Source: Escherichia phage vB_EcoM_WL-3
Sequence record: MT968995.1
DNA length: 64,000 bases
Reading direction: 5' to 3' (one strand)
This document shows, piece after piece, positions 3,694-38,162 of the stretch. Position 1 is the stretch's first letter, and each line of letters begins with the position of its first letter. The notes below the pieces were generated by a model that saw nothing but the letters and a program-made list of their open reading frames with translations, did no database searches and was not told where the DNA came from. Position numbers and translations under genes: made by a program.

Positions 3694-3900
3694 TCACAGT
3701 TGCCACCATTTTTTGACTTGATAAGAATCAACCCACACTTTCATATTAGGGTCTGCTCTTACAATAGGAGGATTAACTTCTTTGATTGAACTATCATGGT
3801 ATTCTTTTTCAGAAATTTTCACGCAAAGATGACCATTCAAAGATTCAGTAAATCCTGCATTAATTTTAAGACGCTTGAATTTTACGTGTGTAAGCATCAA
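3694..3900 (-). CDS. Hypothetical small protein
   Basis: ORF track 68 aa. Confidence 0.45.
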   Translation of the reverse strand: MMLTHVKFKRLKINAGFTESLNGHLCVKISEKEYHDSSIKEVNPPIVRADPNMKVWVDSYQVKKWWQL

Positions 3901-4183
3901 TCATATCCTCAATCTGCGATCTAGTAGTCTTCCAAAGAATACTAATGAGTTCATCGTTATATGGCTGTTTTAGAATATCCCGACTTTTCTTGATAGCATA
4001 TTCGTATTGAGCGAAATTATTGTTTTCAGCTGCAATCTGAGCGTGTTTATAAAGACGGTTCAGTTCGCGTTTATTTTTAGACAATAACTTATTTGCTTTT
4101 CTTTCTGCTTCAAGACGGTTCTTTTCTTCAATAGAAGAAATAAGCTTTTCCACTTCATCATTAATTTCGGGTTTATCAGTCAT
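3866..4183 (-). CDS. Hypothetical coiled-coil protein
   Basis: ORF track 105 aa, Lys/Glu-rich heptad-like sequence. Confidence 0.55.
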   Translation of the reverse strand: MTDKPEINDEVEKLISSIEEKNRLEAERKANKLLSKNKRELNRLYKHAQIAAENNNFAQYEYAIKKSRDILKQPYNDELISILWKTTRSQIEDMIDAYTRKIQAS

Positions 4184-4184
4184 A

Positions 4185-4403
4185 TTATTTCTCTAATATA
4201 AAATAAAAATCATCATCTGTTAAATGATACCGATAGTTTAATTCTACACCATTAGATTTAAAAGCGGTATCATACGGATTTTCTGGATCAATATCAATGT
4301 CAAGAGCTAAAACTTCCCTGAGATACATTTTAAGTAAATAGGGAATAGCTTCAACTTCAGGTATTTCTTCCAAGAATCCGGAGAGGTTAATCGTTAGCCT
4401 CAT
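4185..4403 (-). CDS. Hypothetical small protein downstream of gene 55
   Basis: ORF track 72 aa; start overlaps gp55 3' end. Confidence 0.5.
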
Positions 4404-4944
4404 ATAAAAAATCCAAACTAGGAGAATCGTCTACAACACTTTTCTTTTCAGCCCCCGGTGTTCTATAGGTTGATTCTTCGTAATGCGTCATTTTATCGTA
4501 GATGTCTTGAATAAAAGTTTCATCTACTAACGCAACCATATCGTCGTCACGACTGTCATAGACATTGTGAACGAAGTAACTATATTTCTTTGCAACTTCC
4601 TTACGTTCTTTTTTAATACGTTGGACAAATGCATTAAAACAAGCTTGAGTTATATATGCATGTGGGTTTTTATATTTCGTTTCATCAAAATTATGAAGTC
4701 CCTTAATAGAAGCTTCTATACCATCTGCAATCATTTCTTGTTTCCAAGATTGGGTGTATCCTGAAAAGTTGAAACGTTTAGATAAGCCTTCTGCAATAAG
4801 CATAATGGCTAATCCGATAGTATCATTCTGACGAACTACTTTATTTGGGTCTTTATTATTTGCTAATTCTGTTTTCCAATCAATAATAGCTTGTAAAAGC
4901 TCTTTATTGTTTACGTAATTATATTTAGGCTTAGTTTCTGACAT
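4387..4944 (-). CDS. 55: Late-transcription sigma factor gp55
   Basis: 185 aa from internal ATG (track shows upstream GTG); [24 protein letters not shown] matches recalled T4 gp55; SD AGAGGTG. Confidence 0.95.
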
Positions 4945-10284: not shown

Positions 10285-10570
10285 ATTTTTAAGTATTGTA
10301 AAACATTCGATGCAATCGTTTATACTGTCGAATCATCTTTTTAGTAGGACGAGAATAGGTTCCTACGCAAGTGGTCATATGAGGGTCCGTAGAATGTCCT
10401 TTAATAAAAAGTTTCCAAACCTTACCGCCATTTAACTTTTCAGTATAAACCAATTCGGTTTTCATTAAAATGCCTTGTCAGAAAAAGAATTTTGAGTTTT
10501 TTCAAGTATTATAAAACATTTGATGCAATCGCTTATATTGCCGAATCATTTGGTCAGAAAAAGAATTTTG
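10283..10570. repeat. Imperfect direct repeat pair (about 50-70 bp each; 10283-10340 and 10496-10549 with flanking GTCAGAAAAAGAATTTTG copies)
   Basis: Two copies of ...AAGTATT(G/A)TAAAACATT(C/T)GATGCAATCG(T/C)TTATA(C/T)TG(T/C)CGAATCAT at roughly 85 percent identity. Confidence 0.6.
10289..10465 (-). CDS. Hypothetical small protein (58 aa) sharing a C-terminal tail with Pin
   Basis: Hand translation MKTELVYTEKLNGGKVWKLFIKGHSTDPHMTTCVGTYSRPTKKMIRQYKRLHRMFYNT; AAGG SD; tail lies in a direct repeat. Confidence 0.35.
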   Translation of the reverse strand: MKTELVYTEKLNGGKVWKLFIKGHSTDPHMTTCVGTYSRPTKKMIRQYKRLHRMFYNT

Positions 10571-10987
10571 TGTTTCAAGCCATTCAATATATTCTGCCGC
10601 AGCTTGCATCAGGTTACCTTCATAATCATCAATATCTTTTTTCAATGCCACTTTAGCTAATGCATATGAAATACGTTCACCTTGAAAAGCGGCTTTAGGC
10701 TTCTGAACAACTTGATTAGTTCGCTCTACAACTTCTTCAATTTCGCCATTTTCAACGGATTCAGTATTCCATAAGCACCAATACGTAATTGGCTTATCAT
10801 AGATATTAATAATCTTTCCGTCGGAAAGTTCAATTTCAATAATTCCAGTATCAGGTTCTATATCATCTTCACATTCTTTTGCAAGTTCACGAACTTTAAA
10901 GACAGTACCTGCACTAAGTTCCGGCCAGTAATTACACAGCCCTGTATCAACACGATTAATTCTAAACCACTTATCTACTGTAATCAT
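10502..10987 (-). CDS. pin: Protease inhibitor Pin-like protein
   Basis: 161 aa from internal ATG (track shows TTG); position between gene 49 and nrdC as in T4. Confidence 0.6.
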   Translation of the reverse strand: MITVDKWFRINRVDTGLCNYWPELSAGTVFKVRELAKECEDDIEPDTGIIEIELSDGKIINIYDKPITYWCLWNTESVENGEIEEVVERTNQVVQKPKAAFQGERISYALAKVALKKDIDDYEGNLMQAAAEYIEWLETQNSFSDQMIRQYKRLHQMFYNT

Positions 10988-11110
10988 GTCCCATCTCCAT
11001 ATCAATTAAGTCATTTATCGTTGGTTCATTATATACTGTTTCTTCATCAGTGTAAACCGGTTCTTCCGGCTCTGGCTCTACTGTTTCCCATCTAGCCGCC
11101 CACCAGGGTT

Positions 11111-11431
11111 TTATAGCGTAATCCATTCTCGTATTGTCTGAGTTACTACACGTTCATGGAGCTCGACTAGTTCAACAGTCGGAACTGCATAATACCAGTC
11201 AGAATGGTAAGAACCTGAGCGAGATTCATTTACAGACACATGAACGTTATGTTTTGGACTAAAATAAACACACTGACGATATTGGCATTTACCATCTTGC
11301 ACCCAGTCTTCTATTTCAATAGGTTTAAGATAGTCGGAAAAATCGAAATCATAGTTTTCCGAAAATGCATCATGGTCTTCGATGATTTCACTCAGAACTG
11401 CATCAACATCTAATTTATTTTCAATAGTCAT
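11111..11431 (-). CDS. Hypothetical protein (49.x region)
   Basis: ORF track 106 aa. Confidence 0.55.
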   Translation of the reverse strand: MTIENKLDVDAVLSEIIEDHDAFSENYDFDFSDYLKPIEIEDWVQDGKCQYRQCVYFSPKHNVHVSVNESRSGSYHSDWYYAVPTVELVELHERVVTQTIREWITL

Positions 11432-11442
11432 TTTTTCACCAA

Positions 11443-11613
11443 TTAATTTCGCAATTTATTAAGTTCTTCATAATCAATCCAGGATTCTAATCCTGATGGC
11501 AAATCAGATTCAATTTCCCACAGAAGTTCTTCAATTTTATGAAGACGATCTAATTCTTCAGCTGGAATAGTAACCATTGATGGAGCTCTTGATACACTAA
11601 TATCGTAAATCAT
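11443..11613 (-). CDS. Hypothetical small protein (49.x region)
   Basis: Track ORF shortened to internal ATG abutting the upstream stop. Confidence 0.45.
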   Translation of the reverse strand: MIYDISVSRAPSMVTIPAEELDRLHKIEELLWEIESDLPSGLESWIDYEELNKLRN

Positions 11614-11615
11614 AT

Positions 11616-11831
11616 TTACCCCAGTTTGACCATACAATCGCCGTATTTCCACTTAGAAATAGACTTTTCGCCGTTAGAATAATAAACTTCGAGTTTAGCA
11701 CGATTATTTTTAATTTGAATAACCTTGGCTGTCATTAAAGTTCCATACCCATAGTAAACTGCAACTTCATCACCTACATATACCGCGCTTCCGCGGTAAT
11801 CATGGATATAATCAGTTCCTTCGAGCATCAT
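11616..11831 (-). CDS. Hypothetical small protein (49.x region)
   Basis: ORF track 71 aa; start overlaps nrdC stop. Confidence 0.55.
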   Translation of the reverse strand: MMLEGTDYIHDYRGSAVYVGDEVAVYYGYGTLMTAKVIQIKNNRAKLEVYYSNGEKSISKWKYGDCMVKLG

Positions 11832-12335: not shown

Positions 12336-12639
12336 TTTCTTCTCGGTCAAATCGGTGTTTACAATGGCGGCATTTATAACGAAGATTATTAGTCTGCCAA
12401 TGGACCAATTGCACCTGTTCAGTTCCACACTCAGGGCAATTAGGAACGTTTTTAGAAGCTCTTTCACGTCGTTCAACCATAGCCATAATAGCATCCCATG
12501 CTGGAGGTTTAAAATCTAAATCGTCGCAGCCGTGAATCTTTCCACGCATTTCCATATCATCTTCCTCACCAGCCATAATAATTTTAATTAGACTGGAATT
12601 ACTTGAAGCTGCAATGTCTTCTAATAGACGCTTTTTCAT
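12322..12639 (-). CDS. Hypothetical zinc-ribbon protein
   Basis: 105 aa; CPECG...CRHCKH four-Cys motif. Confidence 0.55.
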
Positions 12640-13565
12640 TTCAATACCTCAATAGCATTGCGTAAACCATTTGCTTTTGCATTAAGAGCTTTTAACAATT
12701 TGGTGTGTTCTGCAATTTGGGCTTCAACTTCAATCAAACGAGCATTGAGATATTCGCGTTCTTCGCTCAGGTTATCAACCTTTTCTACTTTAGGTTCTTT
12801 TACAACTGGCTTATACGTATTAGGGTTCTTCAGTTTAATTAGAATGCGTGAGCTGTATAACATTGAACCATTATCTTCGGTTTCATCATACATTTCTACT
12901 ACGTCCATGATTTTTAACATCATGCGGAGTTTATAAGATAACGAACGAATAGTTTTGTTGTGCTTATTAATTTCTCTAGCTGTCATGGTGCCGAGATTAC
13001 GTGAGTAATAATAAGGAACCTGGATATTAATTAATACTGATGAACCACCTGGCTTGTGTGTTACTTCATCAGCAATAACCCAGTCCTTAACATGAACTGT
13101 ATTTGTACGGTCATCGCCAGCGGTAAACAGTTTGCGAGCATGCTTAAAAAGCATATTCACTTGAGTATTGAATTGACAAGCAAATTTATCAGCAAATTTA
13201 GTTTCAGGAATGGTAGATAACCAATCAGCCAAATGGGTCTTTTTAACATCGTTAATAATAGTAAATTCAACCAAATCGGTTATAGATGTCGAAGTTTTAA
13301 TGAAGCTCGGCTTCATAAAGTTTTTAATGTTATCACGAGCTACAGTAGAAGATAACATACGAGAACGTTTAAACCATTCAAGCAAATTGCCTAACGAATG
13401 AGAATAAGCGTTCTGAGTATCTTTACAGATATGATTTTCCTGGCCAACATACTGAAGGAAATCACGAAGAATATTATTGATTACTGCTCTATGTCCTATC
13501 TGATAATCACGATGTTTAGTAATAAGATTGTCAAAATAATCAATATAATGTTTACGAGTTTTCAT
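12636..13565 (-). CDS. Hypothetical protein with C-terminal coiled coil (nrdC.x array member 1)
   Basis: 309 aa; heptad-rich tail ...[42 protein letters not shown]. Confidence 0.65.
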   Translation of the reverse strand: MKTRKHYIDYFDNLITKHRDYQIGHRAVINNILRDFLQYVGQENHICKDTQNAYSHSLGNLLEWFKRSRMLSSTVARDNIKNFMKPSFIKTSTSITDLVEFTIINDVKKTHLADWLSTIPETKFADKFACQFNTQVNMLFKHARKLFTAGDDRTNTVHVKDWVIADEVTHKPGGSSVLINIQVPYYYSRNLGTMTAREINKHNKTIRSLSYKLRMMLKIMDVVEMYDETEDNGSMLYSSRILIKLKNPNTYKPVVKEPKVEKVDNLSEEREYLNARLIEVEAQIAEHTKLLKALNAKANGLRNAIEVLK

Positions 13566-13621
13566 ATTCTTCTCACTTGGTTAATAATTTATGCTCCAAG
13601 CCGTCCTTGGCTTAAATTACT

Positions 13622-14629
13622 TTACTTAATTAACTGTAAAGCTTGTTCCAGACGATCAAGACGATTAACAGATTCTTCCCAAATCCTTTTAGCTTGTTCA
13701 TACTCTTTGTGCGCTTTATTAGAAATTTCTAGAGCTTCCTTATACGCCTTTTCTAGTGCGATAACTTCTGGACGAATTTCTATCGGTTCAGGTGAATCGT
13801 CAAGACATTCCATTAGTTCCTCAAGGGTAGTTTCTTCTTTAGGAGTATTCACAATTTCATCACATTTTTGCTGGTAAATTTCTTTATCAGTCGGTGAGTA
13901 CGCACACTTTACTTCACGAAGACTAACTACAATTTTATATCCTTCCCAACCGCATATATTCTTAAAAGGACAAGTATGAATATTTTCTACTGTTTCCATA
14001 CAAAGTAATGCAGTCTCTAACTGACGAGTTATATCACTAGCAATTGAGAAAAATTTATTAATGTTCTTTTGATTAGCTTCTGGTGTAAAAAATCCATAAT
14101 TAATAAAAATAGCTACTTTATTTTTATCAAGCTCATATTCTTTTATTGTAATCATATCAGCAGCTAAAGGATGAATTTGACGATAATCGCCATAACATAG
14201 TTTAGAAGCCGATTTCAGAATTTGCTTTTTGAAAAGTCTAAATTTACTAACCCAACGACGAGTAAAAATATTCTCAGGGTCTTCTTTGGTATTAAGATGA
14301 TAAGAATTAACATCACCGAACCAGTTATATCCTACTACATCTTTAGTTCGTTTAATTTCTTTACCAAATTTACTAAGAATATCTCTGTTGACTAAGTATG
14401 AAAGAAGACGAGACCCTTTAAAGGTTTTCTTAATACCATCTTTATTTGTACGACTAGAAATTTCACGAACTTCATGAATAAATTTGCCGGAAGAAACAAT
14501 ACTTGCATCAATATTATTGAGCCATTGATTGATAATAGAAAGAACGCTATTTTGGCCAAACAACGGTATAGGCATAACTTTATTATCAATAACATTATTG
14601 AATGATTTGATGTATTCGTTACGAGTCAT
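13622..14629 (-). CDS. Hypothetical protein with C-terminal coiled coil (array member 2)
   Basis: Start moved to ATG 14629 with GAGGAG SD; tail ...KEYEQAKRIWEESVNRLDRLEQALQLIK. Confidence 0.65.
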   Translation of the reverse strand: MTRNEYIKSFNNVIDNKVMPIPLFGQNSVLSIINQWLNNIDASIVSSGKFIHEVREISSRTNKDGIKKTFKGSRLLSYLVNRDILSKFGKEIKRTKDVVGYNWFGDVNSYHLNTKEDPENIFTRRWVSKFRLFKKQILKSASKLCYGDYRQIHPLAADMITIKEYELDKNKVAIFINYGFFTPEANQKNINKFFSIASDITRQLETALLCMETVENIHTCPFKNICGWEGYKIVVSLREVKCAYSPTDKEIYQQKCDEIVNTPKEETTLEELMECLDDSPEPIEIRPEVIALEKAYKEALEISNKAHKEYEQAKRIWEESVNRLDRLEQALQLIK

Positions 14630-14654
14630 AATAATCTCCTCAGTAGAAAGTAAG

Positions 14655-14690
14655 AACATTATACCACATCCTTGTGGCAAAGTAAACTAG
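14655..14690 (-). promoter_or_regulatory. T4-type early promoter (-35 GTTTAC, -10 TATAAT)
   Basis: Minus-strand GTTTAC then 18 nt then TGGTATAAT upstream of ORF 13622-14629. Confidence 0.45.
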
Positions 14691-15709
14691 TTCAGTGCAT
14701 TTAGTGCATTGTTTAGTTTAGAACGTTGCTTCGTGAGATTTTTGACTTTTTCTTGAGCTTTTTCTAGCATCTTTTCAGCTTCTAGCACTTCATTAGTTGC
14801 TTTGACGAGTTCATCATCTACTGCCTTGATAGACTTCTCAATCGCATCCGCGTGCCATTTTTCAACAGGTTTAAGACTCGGATTTTCAATAGGAAGAAAA
14901 TTCACTTTATTGAATTTCCATGCATCTTTATTGCCTGAACTATACATCCAAAATTTAGAATCGTTTGATGAGTAATTAGATAAATTTAAGTTATCTTGCA
15001 CTTCTTGCTTTTTCTCTTGCGGGACTTCGTCCTTTCTCAAAAAATCGTATTTAAATGAAACGATCATATCAAGTTCATATGTTGTTGTATGTTCCCAATT
15101 TCGCTCAAAACGAGGTAAAATCTTAGAATGAACAGCGGCAACAACATCCATATACTTAAATGCTTCTGTCAACTGCGATTTAAGGCATTCGCAAATTGAA
15201 AGAGAATTTTTTGTATTAGGTTTAAAGCTAATTCGTGCAGTTCTATTATTTTCTTTTAATGGTCTTACTTCCATCTGAAGAGTATAACCATCAAATTTCA
15301 GGTTCTTTAAGTTAATGTCAGAACCTTTTAATCGACTAGCCGTCGACAAAATTTGCTTTAATTGTTTACGGAATAGAGCAATAAATCTCCATTCAATACG
15401 ATAATGATTTGGATTGAAAAATCCAGATGATAAATCGACCTTACTTTGACCAACGCCTTGAACAAATAGAGGATTTTTATAATCAATAGTTTTACAGAAA
15501 TCGGTGAGCTGCTCACGAGCAGTCATTTGTGTAATATACCCCGCTTTACTAAAATGACGTAACCATTCACTGCTATTCAGATGTTTAAAGGCGTGAATGG
15601 AACAATTAACTTTACCAAGGTCTAAATTATTTTCGCACAAAAATGTCATAGCATCACGAGTATAGCTGGCATTACGAACCATATCTTCAATTTGAGAACG
15701 AGTTTTCAT
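14687..15709 (-). CDS. Hypothetical protein with C-terminal coiled coil (array member 3)
   Basis: 340 aa; tail ...LEAEKMLEKAQEKVKNLTKQRSKLNNALNALN. Confidence 0.65.
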   Translation of the reverse strand: MKTRSQIEDMVRNASYTRDAMTFLCENNLDLGKVNCSIHAFKHLNSSEWLRHFSKAGYITQMTAREQLTDFCKTIDYKNPLFVQGVGQSKVDLSSGFFNPNHYRIEWRFIALFRKQLKQILSTASRLKGSDINLKNLKFDGYTLQMEVRPLKENNRTARISFKPNTKNSLSICECLKSQLTEAFKYMDVVAAVHSKILPRFERNWEHTTTYELDMIVSFKYDFLRKDEVPQEKKQEVQDNLNLSNYSSNDSKFWMYSSGNKDAWKFNKVNFLPIENPSLKPVEKWHADAIEKSIKAVDDELVKATNEVLEAEKMLEKAQEKVKNLTKQRSKLNNALNALN

Positions 15710-15717
15710 GGTGTTCC

Positions 15718-16629
15718 TTAAGATTTAAGTAAATCAACAATTTTAATTAATTTTTCACGCTCAGATTTAGCTTTACTACTCAATCCAGATAGTCTGAAAA
15801 TTTCATCGTCATATTGTTGAATAGAAATATTCAGCTCTTCAATCTGTTTATTAAAATAATCAATTTGTTCAGAATGTTTTTCGTTACTACGAACTGGTAC
15901 AGGTTTTGTAGGCAATTTAGTTGAACTGGATTCATCCGGGCGATAAATTAAAATACAACTTGAACCAATAGGGCATTTTGCACCAGATGAATATTCTAAT
16001 GTTCCGGCTTCTTTTAAAACTTCAAAAGCTAAACAGAGATGATGCCCCATATTAACATAATCTGTAGAGTGAGCTCTGACGTAATAATCATCTCCACGAG
16101 TGCTAAATTTAAAGCATTTAAGGTCTTCTGTATTATTGGTCTTAAAAATCATTTGTTTATCTAGACCTTTAGCTAATCGAGCGCCTAATGCTAATAATCG
16201 TCTTTGATTTTCCCACAAATCCGCAATCATTTGATCGAATGATAATTTTGGCATTAGTCGACCATAAAGGTCATATCCTTTATTATAATTACGAAGGATT
16301 TCACTCGCATTAATACGAGACAATGCTCCAATTTTATTAAGGGCTTTCATAATGCGATTAGATAAACTCATTCCAGATCCGTTTGTTCGCTGCAAATGTT
16401 TTTCTAATCCAAATCCAATATCAACTTTAAACTTATCTAAAATTTCTGCATGAACATCTCTGTCAATAACATTCAAATCCAAAGTTGAGTTAAATCTATG
16501 AAAAAATTTATCTGGCTCTGCACTGCGAAATACAGTCCATTCATTCATCATTTTTTTATTAACTAAAGATTTAATTACTGCATTGACATTATTAATTACT
16601 ACTGACATATTTTCCTCACTCAATTTCAA
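15718..16629 (-). CDS. Hypothetical protein with C-terminal coiled coil (array member 4)
   Basis: 303 aa; tail ...IEELNISIQQYDDEIFRLSGLSSKAKSEREKLIKIVDLLKS. Confidence 0.65.
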   Translation of the reverse strand: MKLSEENMSVVINNVNAVIKSLVNKKMMNEWTVFRSAEPDKFFHRFNSTLDLNVIDRDVHAEILDKFKVDIGFGLEKHLQRTNGSGMSLSNRIMKALNKIGALSRINASEILRNYNKGYDLYGRLMPKLSFDQMIADLWENQRRLLALGARLAKGLDKQMIFKTNNTEDLKCFKFSTRGDDYYVRAHSTDYVNMGHHLCLAFEVLKEAGTLEYSSGAKCPIGSSCILIYRPDESSSTKLPTKPVPVRSNEKHSEQIDYFNKQIEELNISIQQYDDEIFRLSGLSSKAKSEREKLIKIVDLLKS

Positions 16630-17023
16630 TTTTACTAAATATACAGAATAAGATGGAACAGACTATATAAGCACCACACACAGATTGAACTAATACCATT
16701 CCAAAGAACCAAACAATATTATCAAACAATGTCTGTTTTACGTCGAAAGGACGTAAACTTACAGTAATATTATCACCTTTTTCTATTGAAGAATACATCT
16801 CTGGGGAAATATATTCACTAAATCTATAACCATCTTTGAGTTCATATACGGCAATAAACGATAAACTAGACCCTTTTCCTTGTGTTCCTGTAATGGTATT
16901 AACTACAGTAACATCATAATCTTTATAATGCATATAATCATTAATTGCGTAATAACCATATGCAATTACTACACATAAACAACATATCAATAAATTCAAT
17001 CTTTTAATTATCAACTGTTTCAT
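16616..17023 (-). CDS. Hypothetical membrane protein (two predicted TM segments)
   Basis: 135 aa; hydrophobic N- and C-terminal stretches. Confidence 0.55.
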   Translation of the reverse strand: MKQLIIKRLNLLICCLCVVIAYGYYAINDYMHYKDYDVTVVNTITGTQGKGSSLSFIAVYELKDGYRFSEYISPEMYSSIEKGDNITVSLRPFDVKQTLFDNIVWFFGMVLVQSVCGAYIVCSILFCIFSKIEIE

Positions 17024-17078: not shown

Positions 17079-17606
17079 TTATGCGAGTACCGTCTTTAAC
17101 CGTTCTTCAAACTTCCGAAGAGTATTTTGGCGTTCAGCTCTTTGCTTTTTGTAAGTTTCAATACGCTCTGAAATGAGAGTGTATCGTTCATTTACTGATT
17201 CTTTCATAAAATCAGGAATTTCACGAGAAGCTTTAATCTCGTCAAATTTATCAATAACAGCTTGCTCTTCAGCAATTAAGTTATCATACATTAAAATATC
17301 TTTCTTGATAAACTCAATATCTTCTTGAGTTACACGAGATAATTTAGATGCTTTATCCTTTTTGTACTGTTCGTTAGTATCACGAGACCAGTGTAATGTA
17401 CGATTTTTATTCGTATTTTTGTAAATTTCTACAATACCGATCTCATCGATAATAACGATCCAATTCCAACGGGATTTGTAAATTTGTCCTCCATCAACAG
17501 TGATTTCACCTCCGATTGAGATGTCATTAAAGAACTTGCTTTGCGCTTCAGATTTAAATTTACCATCGTTGTAATTTACTAAGTTGAAAATATCTTTAGC
17601 GTTCAT
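17079..17606 (-). CDS. Hypothetical protein
   Basis: 175 aa; ATG with GGAGG SD; early promoter upstream. Confidence 0.6.
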   Translation of the reverse strand: MNAKDIFNLVNYNDGKFKSEAQSKFFNDISIGGEITVDGGQIYKSRWNWIVIIDEIGIVEIYKNTNKNRTLHWSRDTNEQYKKDKASKLSRVTQEDIEFIKKDILMYDNLIAEEQAVIDKFDEIKASREIPDFMKESVNERYTLISERIETYKKQRAERQNTLRKFEERLKTVLA

Positions 17607-19106: not shown

Positions 19107-19135
19107 TTTGTGAAAAAATTTTTGAAATAAAAAAA

Positions 19136-19153
19136 GGGAGCCCGAAGGCTCCC
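19136..19153 (-). terminator. GC hairpin GGGAGCC-CGAA-GGCTCCC
   Basis: Perfect stem-loop immediately after the stop of ORF 19156-20202. Confidence 0.45.
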
Positions 19154-19155
19154 TA

Positions 19156-36797: not shown

Positions 36798-36838
36798 GAT
36801 AGGGTAATAGTATCACTACCCTATCTAAAAGTAAACTT
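36798..36838 (-). promoter_or_regulatory. Early promoter with stem-loop (PeSL-like cassette)
   Basis: -35 GTTTAC (36831-36836 rc), -10 TACTAT (36807-36812 rc); inverted repeat GATAGGG...CCCTATC around -10. Confidence 0.5.
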
Positions 36839-37070
36839 ATTTTTTACGAAAAATTGATTTATTTTCTGCTGCCCATTTTTCAATAACTGCAGCAGGACCA
36901 GTAACAACAATTTTATCACCGTAATCTTCTGCGGCGAGTTGACCGAAATTATCTAATGCATCACGAAGAACTCCATGAGGCATTTCACCCATTTTATCTT
37001 TCTTGCCAGTGTAAATAAACTCAACTTTTACATCAGCAGTTTCAGCAATAAATTCTTGGTAAGTTTTCAT
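36837..37070 (-). CDS. Capsid-targeted internal protein (IPI-locus ORF)
   Basis: 77 aa from ATG 37070; starts MKTYQEFIAE (canonical capsid targeting sequence). Confidence 0.65.
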   Translation of the reverse strand: MKTYQEFIAETADVKVEFIYTGKKDKMGEMPHGVLRDALDNFGQLAAEDYGDKIVVTGPAAVIEKWAAENKSIFRKK

Positions 37071-37096
37071 TTTGATTTCCATTTGGTTTTGTTTTG

Positions 37097-37136
37097 ATAG
37101 GGTAATAGTATCACAACTAAAACCCTATGTAAACAA
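37097..37136 (-). promoter_or_regulatory. Early promoter with stem-loop (PeSL-like cassette)
   Basis: -35 GTTTAC (37129-37134 rc), -10 TACTAT (37105-37110 rc); inverted repeat ATAGGG...CCCTAT. Confidence 0.5.
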
Positions 37137-37146
37137 CTTTGTGAAA

Positions 37147-37404
37147 TTATTTTAAATCTTCTAATCGTTTCTTCATCTTAGAACCATTTTTAGCAATTTC
37201 TCCTGCATCGGAGCATAATGCTAAAAGTGCTTTAACTTTAGTTTGGTCTCCTTTAAAAGATGAAGGATCGACCGCAGCAGCAAGTTCTTTAATACGAGAG
37301 AAAAGACGCTCAGCTTCAGCTAAAGCCATTCCAAGCTTTACTTCCATACCGTGGGAAGATTCAGTGATAGTAGTTTTTGTAGCAAACTCTTTGAAAGTTT
37401 TCAT
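37147..37404 (-). CDS. Capsid-targeted internal protein (second IP-locus ORF)
   Basis: 85 aa; starts MKTFKEFATKTTITE (capsid-targeting-like); Lys/Ala-rich. Confidence 0.6.
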   Translation of the reverse strand: MKTFKEFATKTTITESSHGMEVKLGMALAEAERLFSRIKELAAAVDPSSFKGDQTKVKALLALCSDAGEIAKNGSKMKKRLEDLK

Positions 37405-37426
37405 TTTTATTTTCCTAATTAATTTT

Positions 37427-37467
37427 GATGAGGTAATAGTATCACTACCTCATCAGTATGTAAACAA
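37427..37467 (-). promoter_or_regulatory. Early promoter with stem-loop (PeSL-like cassette)
   Basis: -35 GTTTAC (37460-37465 rc), -10 TACTAT (37436-37441 rc); inverted repeat GATGAGG...CCTCATC (compensatory versus the other two copies). Confidence 0.5.
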
Positions 37468-37477
37468 CTTTGTGAAA

Positions 37478-38162
<685 letters not shown>

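Follow-up and report, generated by a model that had tools for sequence, protein, structure and literature searches.

The protein DSAD1 of Bacillus phage SPbeta neutralizes DSR2, a SIR2-domain defense protein that depletes NAD+ and senses a virion structural protein (PMC10973363, PMC11087589, PMC11263360). Dsr1 is a SIR2 NADase with a TPR sensor, and the Escherichia coli enzyme is reported to be triggered by a phage major capsid protein via a TPR sensor akin to the one in Avs7 (2026 preprint, PMC12803255). A T4 clone with compensatory deletions had become unable to infect ECOR17, deletion of dsr1 from the host restored infection, and on MG1655 carrying dsr1, plating was restored by T4 nrdC.5 supplied in trans (Srikant et al., 2022, PMC9391042). 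That study reported neither a mechanism nor a family relationship for nrdC.5, and the paralogues were not tested there. Literature searches on nrdC.3, nrdC.4, nrdC.6, DUF7235 and Dsr1 inhibitors returned nothing beyond it: no reported phage anti-Dsr1 factor other than nrdC.5, and no later work on nrdC.5, was found. Here, we analyzed a 64,000-nucleotide stretch of Escherichia phage vB_EcoM_WL-3 (sequence record MT968995.1; the window), in which nrdC.5 is one of four tandem genes, nrdC.3 to nrdC.6.

The array resembles two T-even clusters, that of Gp49.2 (PMC13096335) and the dmd-tifA-adfA 'anti-TA island' (PMC9391042), in consisting of accessory genes in variable regions. T-even counter-defense genes each neutralize one host defense and are gained, lost or amplified by microhomology recombination. 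The Gp49.2 and dmd-tifA-adfA genes, however, are small and mutually unrelated, whereas nrdC.3 to nrdC.6 appear to be four tandem members of one family. They are known T4 open reading frames (ORFs), one with a published counter-defense role, so that the system is not new in kind. The novelty lies in the family link: as paralogues of the anti-Dsr1 gene nrdC.5, the genes nrdC.3, nrdC.4 and nrdC.6 become candidates for a counter-defense role. Our reading, to which we assign a probability of roughly 0.55, is that the tandem array encodes a small family of diverged, modular counter-defense proteins, with an NrdC.5-type inhibitor as the overall model.

The array and its position relative to T4

The 5.1-kb stretch around the array shares 90–96% nucleotide identity with several hundred T4-like coliphage genomes. 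When the flanking genes were compared with those of RB59 (species Tequatrovirus T4), endonuclease VII (157/157 residues) and NrdC (87/87) were identical and 49.2 nearly so (102/106). Because of this identity or near-identity, the window is assigned by sequence to a T4-like Tequatrovirus closely related to T4, though distinct from it.

Four consecutive ORFs of similar size, already singled out in a preliminary description of the window, are present on the minus strand with intergenic gaps of 8–57 bases (Table 1). The annotation of RB32 and RB59 names them nrdC.3, nrdC.4, nrdC.5 and nrdC.6, so that the earlier proposal to compare them with T4 nrdC.4–nrdC.7 was off by one; the order of transcription is nrdC.6, nrdC.5, nrdC.4, nrdC.3. 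The nrdC.5 of the window is 91.5% identical to that of RB59, has the same length (340 aa) and occupies the same slot between nrdC.6 and nrdC.4. On these sequence grounds it is taken as the orthologue of the T4 anti-Dsr1 gene. The preliminary description had stated that no function was recognizable, which is out of date for nrdC.5, since this gene overcomes Dsr1 in T4 (PMC9391042). It had also assigned the block to a variable region near nrdC that is home to genes for host interaction; this agrees with the action of nrdC.5 against Dsr1 and with that of the nearby gene 49.2, whose T6 product, Gp49.2, inhibits the OLD defense (PMC13096335). Because it combines an anti-Dsr1 and an anti-OLD gene, the region is a counter-defense hot-spot.

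Profile comparisons suggest that the four genes are paralogues

Pairwise BLASTP among the four proteins linked nrdC.3 with nrdC.4 (E = 1.6e-5), and no other link was found. When family profiles were compared with hhalign, nrdC.3 and nrdC.4 aligned with high significance (98.2%, E = 3.5e-14). The nrdC.5 profile was then enlarged with divergent Dhaka- and Mosig-type sequences, and with it nrdC.4 and nrdC.5 aligned over 182 columns (90.7%, E = 1.3e-6). A third-party family, phrog_26858, matches the nrdC.4 core and nrdC.5-type tails, with the N-to-C order preserved. When 1.84 billion proteins were searched exhaustively by HMMER with the nrdC.4 profile, only seven cluster representatives were returned, one of which is an nrdC.3-type protein (E = 9e-8). 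Judged by these searches, the nrdC.4 family is extremely narrow.

The position of nrdC.6 is more distant. In direct profile comparisons with the single families its matches were non-significant (E = 0.002–0.046), but a merged nrdC.3, nrdC.4 and nrdC.5 profile matched nrdC.6 over 86 columns (92.3%, E = 5.4e-7), with 0.2% for the reversed-nrdC.6 control. The aligned stretch has two motifs in common. Motif II, which is the most conserved block of the nrdC.6 family (GARLAKGLD), fell in register with motif II of the other three proteins in all three low-stringency pairwise alignments. The second motif appears as SRMLSSTVARDNIKNF, SRLLSYLVNRDILSKF, AGYITQMTAREQLTDF and GALSRINASEILRNY.

Could nrdC.6 merely resemble its neighbors in size, position and helical tail, its profile match being a false positive caused by helical composition? 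The direct comparisons, the need for a merged profile and the short span of the match would fit such a reading, and both PHROGs and Pfam hold nrdC.6 as a separate family. We nevertheless regard it as very improbable. A compositional artifact is hard to reconcile with the drop from 92.3% to 0.2% upon reversal and with the constant register of motif II; moreover, the order of secondary-structure elements in nrdC.6 equals that in nrdC.5, the two models have a structural hit in common, and nrdC.6 keeps the first array position in every genus sampled.

These data suggest that (i) nrdC.3, nrdC.4 and nrdC.5 are paralogues, which from the sequence comparisons we hold with good confidence; and (ii) nrdC.6 is a more distant member of the same family, which we hold with fair confidence. 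The array of paralogues put forward in the preliminary description is thus borne out by the three profile matches. The divergence is deep: nrdC.3, nrdC.4 and nrdC.6 are at most 25% identical to NrdC.5 and belong to other families (PF26897, PF26899).

The four proteins have a common layout with amphipathic C-terminal tails

The predicted layout is the same in all four proteins: a helical N-terminal part is followed by an α/β middle domain that carries both conserved motifs, then by a linker, and at the C terminus by an amphipathic helix or helix-turn-helix. The AlphaFold2 model of nrdC.5 was poor overall (mean predicted local distance difference test (pLDDT) of 54), and that of nrdC.6 reached a pLDDT of 78.5 and a predicted template-modeling score (pTM) of 0.66. 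In their C-terminal halves both models run through a long helix, a β-hairpin, a helix, a second β-hairpin, a linker and a terminal helix, and in Foldseek searches both match the same 346-aa protein of Serratia phage CBH8. The terminal segment of nrdC.5 is modeled as a single 59-residue helix (residues 281–339, pLDDT 74–94), and that of nrdC.6 as a helix (243–272), a turn and a second helix (278–295) behind a disordered linker.

The preliminary description had claimed that each protein ends in a heptad-rich helix. We examined this with two shuffle-controlled measures. The a/d heptad score peaks in the tails of nrdC.3, nrdC.5 and nrdC.6, and the observed value was reached by 2–3 of 200 shuffles. 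Hydrophobic periodicity at 3.5 residues, measured by Fourier analysis, peaks in the tails of nrdC.4 (6/300 shuffles) and nrdC.5 (1/300); by this second measure the nrdC.6 tail is marginal (44/300) and the nrdC.3 tail non-significant (193/300). With both measures combined, the strongest heptad-like signal lies in the tail for all four proteins, in line with the earlier claim, and heptads are compatible with the amphipathic helical segment that forms each tail. A Gly break interrupts the tail midway in nrdC.3 and nrdC.6; these two look like helix-turn-helix segments, and the tails of nrdC.4 and nrdC.5 look like one long helix.

Of the window's 87 ORFs with 80 aa or more, only nrdC.3 to nrdC.6 carry the end motif L-x-x-[AI]-[ILV]-x-[VLA]-[LI]-[KN], which was derived post hoc from these same four proteins. 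Tail-only profile comparisons between the families were not significant and barely exceeded reversed controls. Therefore, what the proteins share is an architecture and an end motif and not a demonstrable tail homology: the tails resemble one another in character, position and terminal sequence, but taken by themselves they allow no claim of homology. The earlier picture of a shared tail behind diverged N-terminal domains holds in one respect, since in nrdC.3, nrdC.4 and nrdC.5 the region ahead of the tail is the most diverged and the tail the best conserved, but not in the other, since the tails as such are not significantly similar from family to family.

The nrdC.6 model also gave full-length Foldseek matches (10–15% identity, E from 3e-7 to 1e-3) to uncharacterized 300–346-aa proteins of distant T4-like phages that infect Pectobacterium (PM2), Enterobacter, Acinetobacter (Acj9), Citrobacter, Yersinia, Serratia (CBH8) and Klebsiella. 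Template-modeling (TM) scores to the nrdC.6 model were mostly 0.43–0.49, but 0.17–0.32 for Citrobacter phage Merlin, Yersinia phage fHe-Yen9-01 and Serratia phage CBH8. One of these matches, BFVD entry E5EPQ6 (E = 4e-5), is probably Acj9p122, an identification made from identical length alone. Acj9p122 (325 aa, 36836-37813 of the locus) adjoins gene 49, has a heptad-like tail and is the sole 325-aa candidate in a 40-kb stretch; it showed no sequence similarity to any of the four families. To judge from these models, the architecture of nrdC.3 to nrdC.6 may be widespread in Straboviridae.

Several database candidates were rejected. A SAM-like integrase domain (PF02899) at residues 30–85 of nrdC.3 stayed below threshold both in Pfam (E = 0.079, 13.7 bits vs. 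a cut-off of 22.3) and in NCBIfam (E = 0.0011, 18 bits vs. 279), and was matched by one of five alleles only. A PHL-domain match (E = 4e-4) was below its cut-off and was likewise confined to a single allele. The NCBIfam scan gave nothing meaningful, and PDB sequence searches with nrdC.5 and with the nrdC.4 and nrdC.6 profiles gave no match.

The array varies and recombines among T-even-type phages

Tblastn against 50,697 phage records detected nrdC.8 and nrdC.6 in 741 records each, nrdC.3 in 653, nrdC.5 in 581 and nrdC.4 in 553. IMG/VR scans returned close relatives only, and a search anchored on nrdC.8 did not reach distant genera; within this scope, the array is found only in T-even-type phages. 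The gene order in Tequatroviruses is nrdC.8-(nrdC.7)-nrdC.6-nrdC.5-nrdC.4-nrdC.3. The sampled Dhaka-type loci carry nrdC.6-nrdC.5-nrdC.4, and the Mosigvirus locus carries nrdC.6-nrdC.5-nrdC.3.

Sequence variation is uneven along the block. The nrdC.6 and nrdC.8 copies are mostly at least 95% identical to those of the window, nrdC.4 and nrdC.5 spread over 80–99%, and nrdC.3 forms allele groups near 97%, 77% and 60%. The nrdC.3 of the window is 61.5% identical to the RB59 copy, with 90–99% for the neighboring genes. Such clusters suggest allele replacement by recombination. Within nrdC.3, nrdC.4 and nrdC.5, variation is greatest in the middle domain and conservation greatest in the tail.

Several rearrangements of the array were found. 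In ACG-C40 (4805-5216 of the locus), nrdC.6 is accompanied by a 72-aa N-terminal remnant of nrdC.5 and an out-of-frame nrdC.3 tail; because nothing but nrdC.6 and these remnants is retained, a natural isolate can do without the array. In phage Pinarejo, likewise, only the nrdC.6 tail was matched. In P0056 (299 aa, 167-kb contig), residues 146–272 of nrdC.5 are fused to the last ~170 residues of a protein of nrdC.3 type. In Salmonella phage Manna, Manna_094 (3715-4752 of the locus, 345 aa) is an in-frame fusion of the nrdC.6 head (residues 1 to ~262) with the linker and tail of nrdC.4 (residues 253–335), joined at a 21-nt microhomology (QQxxDEI), and nrdC.5 and most of nrdC.4 are deleted. The array is therefore dispensable and polymorphic, and it recombines between its copies.

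The copies of the window also contain short direct DNA repeats. One (13554-13572 and 15698-15716) covers the ribosome-binding site and MKTR start of nrdC.3 and nrdC.5, and another (14207-14228 and 15338-15359) falls on the KQIL stretch of motif II in both nrdC.4 and nrdC.5. These repeats between paralogues could serve as microhomologies for deletions; they are so short that chance could also account for them.

The in-frame Manna chimera shows that head and tail of different paralogues can be combined without breaking the reading frame. We considered that the tails are not simple homo-oligomerization devices but a common docking module, by which the paralogues co-assemble into a mixed complex with several anti-immune heads or all bind one host or phage partner. 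We rate this extension as improbable. If it were true, the array would offer an exchangeable scaffold on which new specificities for immune evasion could evolve, and structural relatives of it would occur throughout Straboviridae.

Variation in array content also bears on whether nrdC.5 alone acts against host defenses, the other three being duplicates that are decaying or that have redundant or unrelated roles, such as host takeover or nucleic-acid binding. Natural arrays with three, two or one member are compatible with this, as are the very high and even conservation of nrdC.6 along its length and a literature that reports no phenotype for nrdC.3, nrdC.4 or nrdC.6. On the other hand, several hundred genomes keep all four frames intact, and the gene order holds across genera; nrdC.3 and nrdC.4 show the nrdC.5 pattern of variable middle and conserved tail; and the weak match to the SAM-like DNA-binding domain of integrases is confined to one of five nrdC.3 alleles. 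We consider a counter-defense role limited to nrdC.5 unlikely, although it is the strongest of the alternatives.

A proposed mechanism for NrdC.5

As a model for the counter-defense family that we favor, we use DSAD1, with the proposal that NrdC.5 likewise binds the defense protein and prevents its activation. The two systems differ in host, phage group and target (Dsr1 vs. DSR2), and no sequence relationship to DSAD1 emerged from the PDB searches with nrdC.5 or with the nrdC.4 and nrdC.6 profiles. NrdC.5 is described as an early T4 gene, and the major capsid protein is a late product. By analogy with DSAD1 and DSR2, NrdC.5 would be made early and bind Dsr1 directly via its variable head, and binding would block trigger recognition or NADase activation before the capsid protein appears. 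Through its tail, the inhibitor would form dimers or multimers and so gain avidity for an oligomeric target. On the same scaffold, nrdC.3, nrdC.4 and nrdC.6 would present different heads to other defense proteins or to other variants of Dsr1, and target specificity would most likely be set by the variable middle domain.

The same phenotype would result if NrdC.5, and perhaps its paralogues, masked the trigger: by binding a phage product, for example unassembled major capsid protein, or by acting as a decoy, it would keep the sensor from ever seeing the trigger, and the defense protein itself would not be inhibited. Activation of E. coli Dsr1 by the capsid protein through its TPR sensor (PMC12803255) is compatible with such a role, and the nrdC.5 model gave marginal Foldseek hits (E ~1e-3) to small virion proteins, among them tail completion, tail terminator and connector proteins. 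These hits, however, come from a model with a pLDDT of 54, have TM-scores of 0.13–0.17 (query) and 0.22–0.36 (target), and are probably noise; accordingly, a relation of nrdC.5 to tail-completion or terminator proteins was rejected. In addition, nrdC.5 is described as early, and the capsid protein is late. We give trigger masking little credence.

Several observations weigh against the counter-defense family that we propose. Functional data are confined to nrdC.5, and there to the T4 allele rather than that of the window. The link to nrdC.6 hinges on the merged profile and its 86 columns; nrdC.6 is also highly and evenly conserved (mostly at least 95%) and lacks the variable middle domain, unlike an arms-race gene. 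The structural likeness of nrdC.5 and nrdC.6 consists of element order and one common weak hit, with a pLDDT of 54 on the nrdC.5 side. The tail-only profile comparisons did not connect the families, and no PDB or functional-family match hints at the biochemistry of any of the four proteins.

If the proposed family holds, its four tandem members, for which a layout and two conserved motifs are defined, include three new counter-defense candidates in the best-studied phage group. The natural chimeras and the nrdC.3 allele series are ready material for testing it.

Gene starts, annotation and neighboring features

The coordinates of the genes, motifs, tails and neighboring features are collected in Table 1.

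Table 1. Positions of the array genes, their motifs and tails, and neighboring features in the window.
Feature	Position	Strand	Description
gene 49.2	11111-11431		102/106 (96%) identity with the RB59 copy; lies ~1.2 kb downstream of the array
nrdC.3 (ORF A)	12636..13565	-	309 aa, ATG start; PHROG 1435; putative paralogue 1
nrdC.3 tail	12639..12779	-	residues 263-309; one Gly break
nrdC.3 motif II, HARKLFTAGDD	13110..13142	-	end of long central helix
nrdC.4 (ORF B)	13622..14629	-	335 aa; PHROG 1435, homologues carry PF26897; putative paralogue 2
nrdC.4 tail	13625..13768	-	residues 288-335; unbroken 3-4 hydrophobic periodicity; ends LEQALQLIK
nrdC.4 motif II, SASKLCYGD	14186..14212	-	
Promoter-like site, TTTACT-17-TATAAT with TG	14658..14686	-	between nrdC.5 and nrdC.4; consensus match only
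nrdC.5 (ORF C)	14687..15709	-	340 aa; Pfam DUF7235/PF23882
nrdC.5 C-terminal helix	14690..14869	-	residues 281-340; ends LNNALNALN
nrdC.5 linker	14870..15043	-	~55 residues (223-280); low confidence, probably disordered; between α/β domain and tail
nrdC.5 motif II, TASRLKGSD	15317..15343	-	
nrdC.6 (ORF D)	15718..16608	-	296 aa; PHROG 2257, homologues carry PF26899; probably the most distant paralogue
nrdC.6 tail	15721..15882	-	residues 243-296; ends LIKIVDLLKS
nrdC.6 motif II, GARLAKGLD	16159..16185	-	most conserved block of the nrdC.6 family
nrdC.7	16616-17023		135 aa; putative membrane protein in RB59 annotation
nrdC.8	17079..17606	-	175 aa; upstream of the array, with nrdC.7 between in Tequatroviruses; context only

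Two start codons required attention. The ATG of nrdC.4 is preceded by GAGGAG, and the mechanical ORF runs on to a TTG at 14680. The nrdC.6 ATG at 16608 is preceded by GAGGAAAAT, with the ribosome-binding site GAGGA, and is the start used in RB32, RB59 and nearly all database homologues. A start at the TTG at 16629 (303 aa), from which the preliminary description had read the fourth ORF, is on this evidence less likely than the ATG (296 aa). As had been noted, two of the proteins, nrdC.3 and nrdC.5, begin MKTR; nrdC.4 starts MTR.

By profile match, nrdC.3 (E = 4.5e-116) and nrdC.4 (E = 7.3e-163) belong with phrog_1435, and PF26897 is precomputed on all nrdC.4 homologues. The nrdC.6 protein matches phrog_2257 (E = 7e-152), and its homologues carry PF26899. 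DUF7235 (PF23882) is matched by nrdC.5 over residues 1–340 on profile positions 1–307 (E = 5.7e-126, 420.5 bits vs. a cut-off of 30); nrdC.3, nrdC.4 and nrdC.6 fall short of its threshold, and three of five nrdC.3 alleles give E values of 0.084 or weaker. Many GenBank and UniRef entries for homologues of nrdC.3 to nrdC.11 carry the label 'thioredoxin'. None of nrdC.3 to nrdC.6 matched a thioredoxin family, and the label appears to be an annotation error that spread from the adjoining nrdC gene. The family assignment corrects this widespread mis-annotation.

A promoter scan of the region gave site counts not above chance, and the site between nrdC.5 and nrdC.4 is listed as a consensus match. 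On the upstream side, nrdC.8 precedes the array in every locus examined, either directly or with nrdC.7 between, and 402 of 741 phage records carry it at an identity of 99% or more; its product also ends in a helical tail (FEERLKTVLA). Farther upstream, a GC-rich hairpin on the minus strand (19135-19154; 8-bp stem with 6 G-C pairs, followed by a T-run) lies right after the nrdC.11 stop and ahead of nrdC.10. By its sequence it is likely an intrinsic terminator upstream of the block from nrdC.10 to nrdC.3.

Downstream of the array, the window has two unrelated small ORFs (11443-11652, 69 aa; 11616-11831, 71 aa) in place of RB59 49.3. RB32 carries a pair of small ORFs there too, one with the annotation 'antitoxin'. 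Just downstream of pin (10502-11005), a 58-aa ORF (10289-10465) ends nearly like Pin, with the 15 residues MIRQYKRLH[RQ]MFYNT, as if the 3′-end of pin had been partly duplicated. An ORF of this kind is annotated between gene 49 and pin in RB32 but not in RB59.

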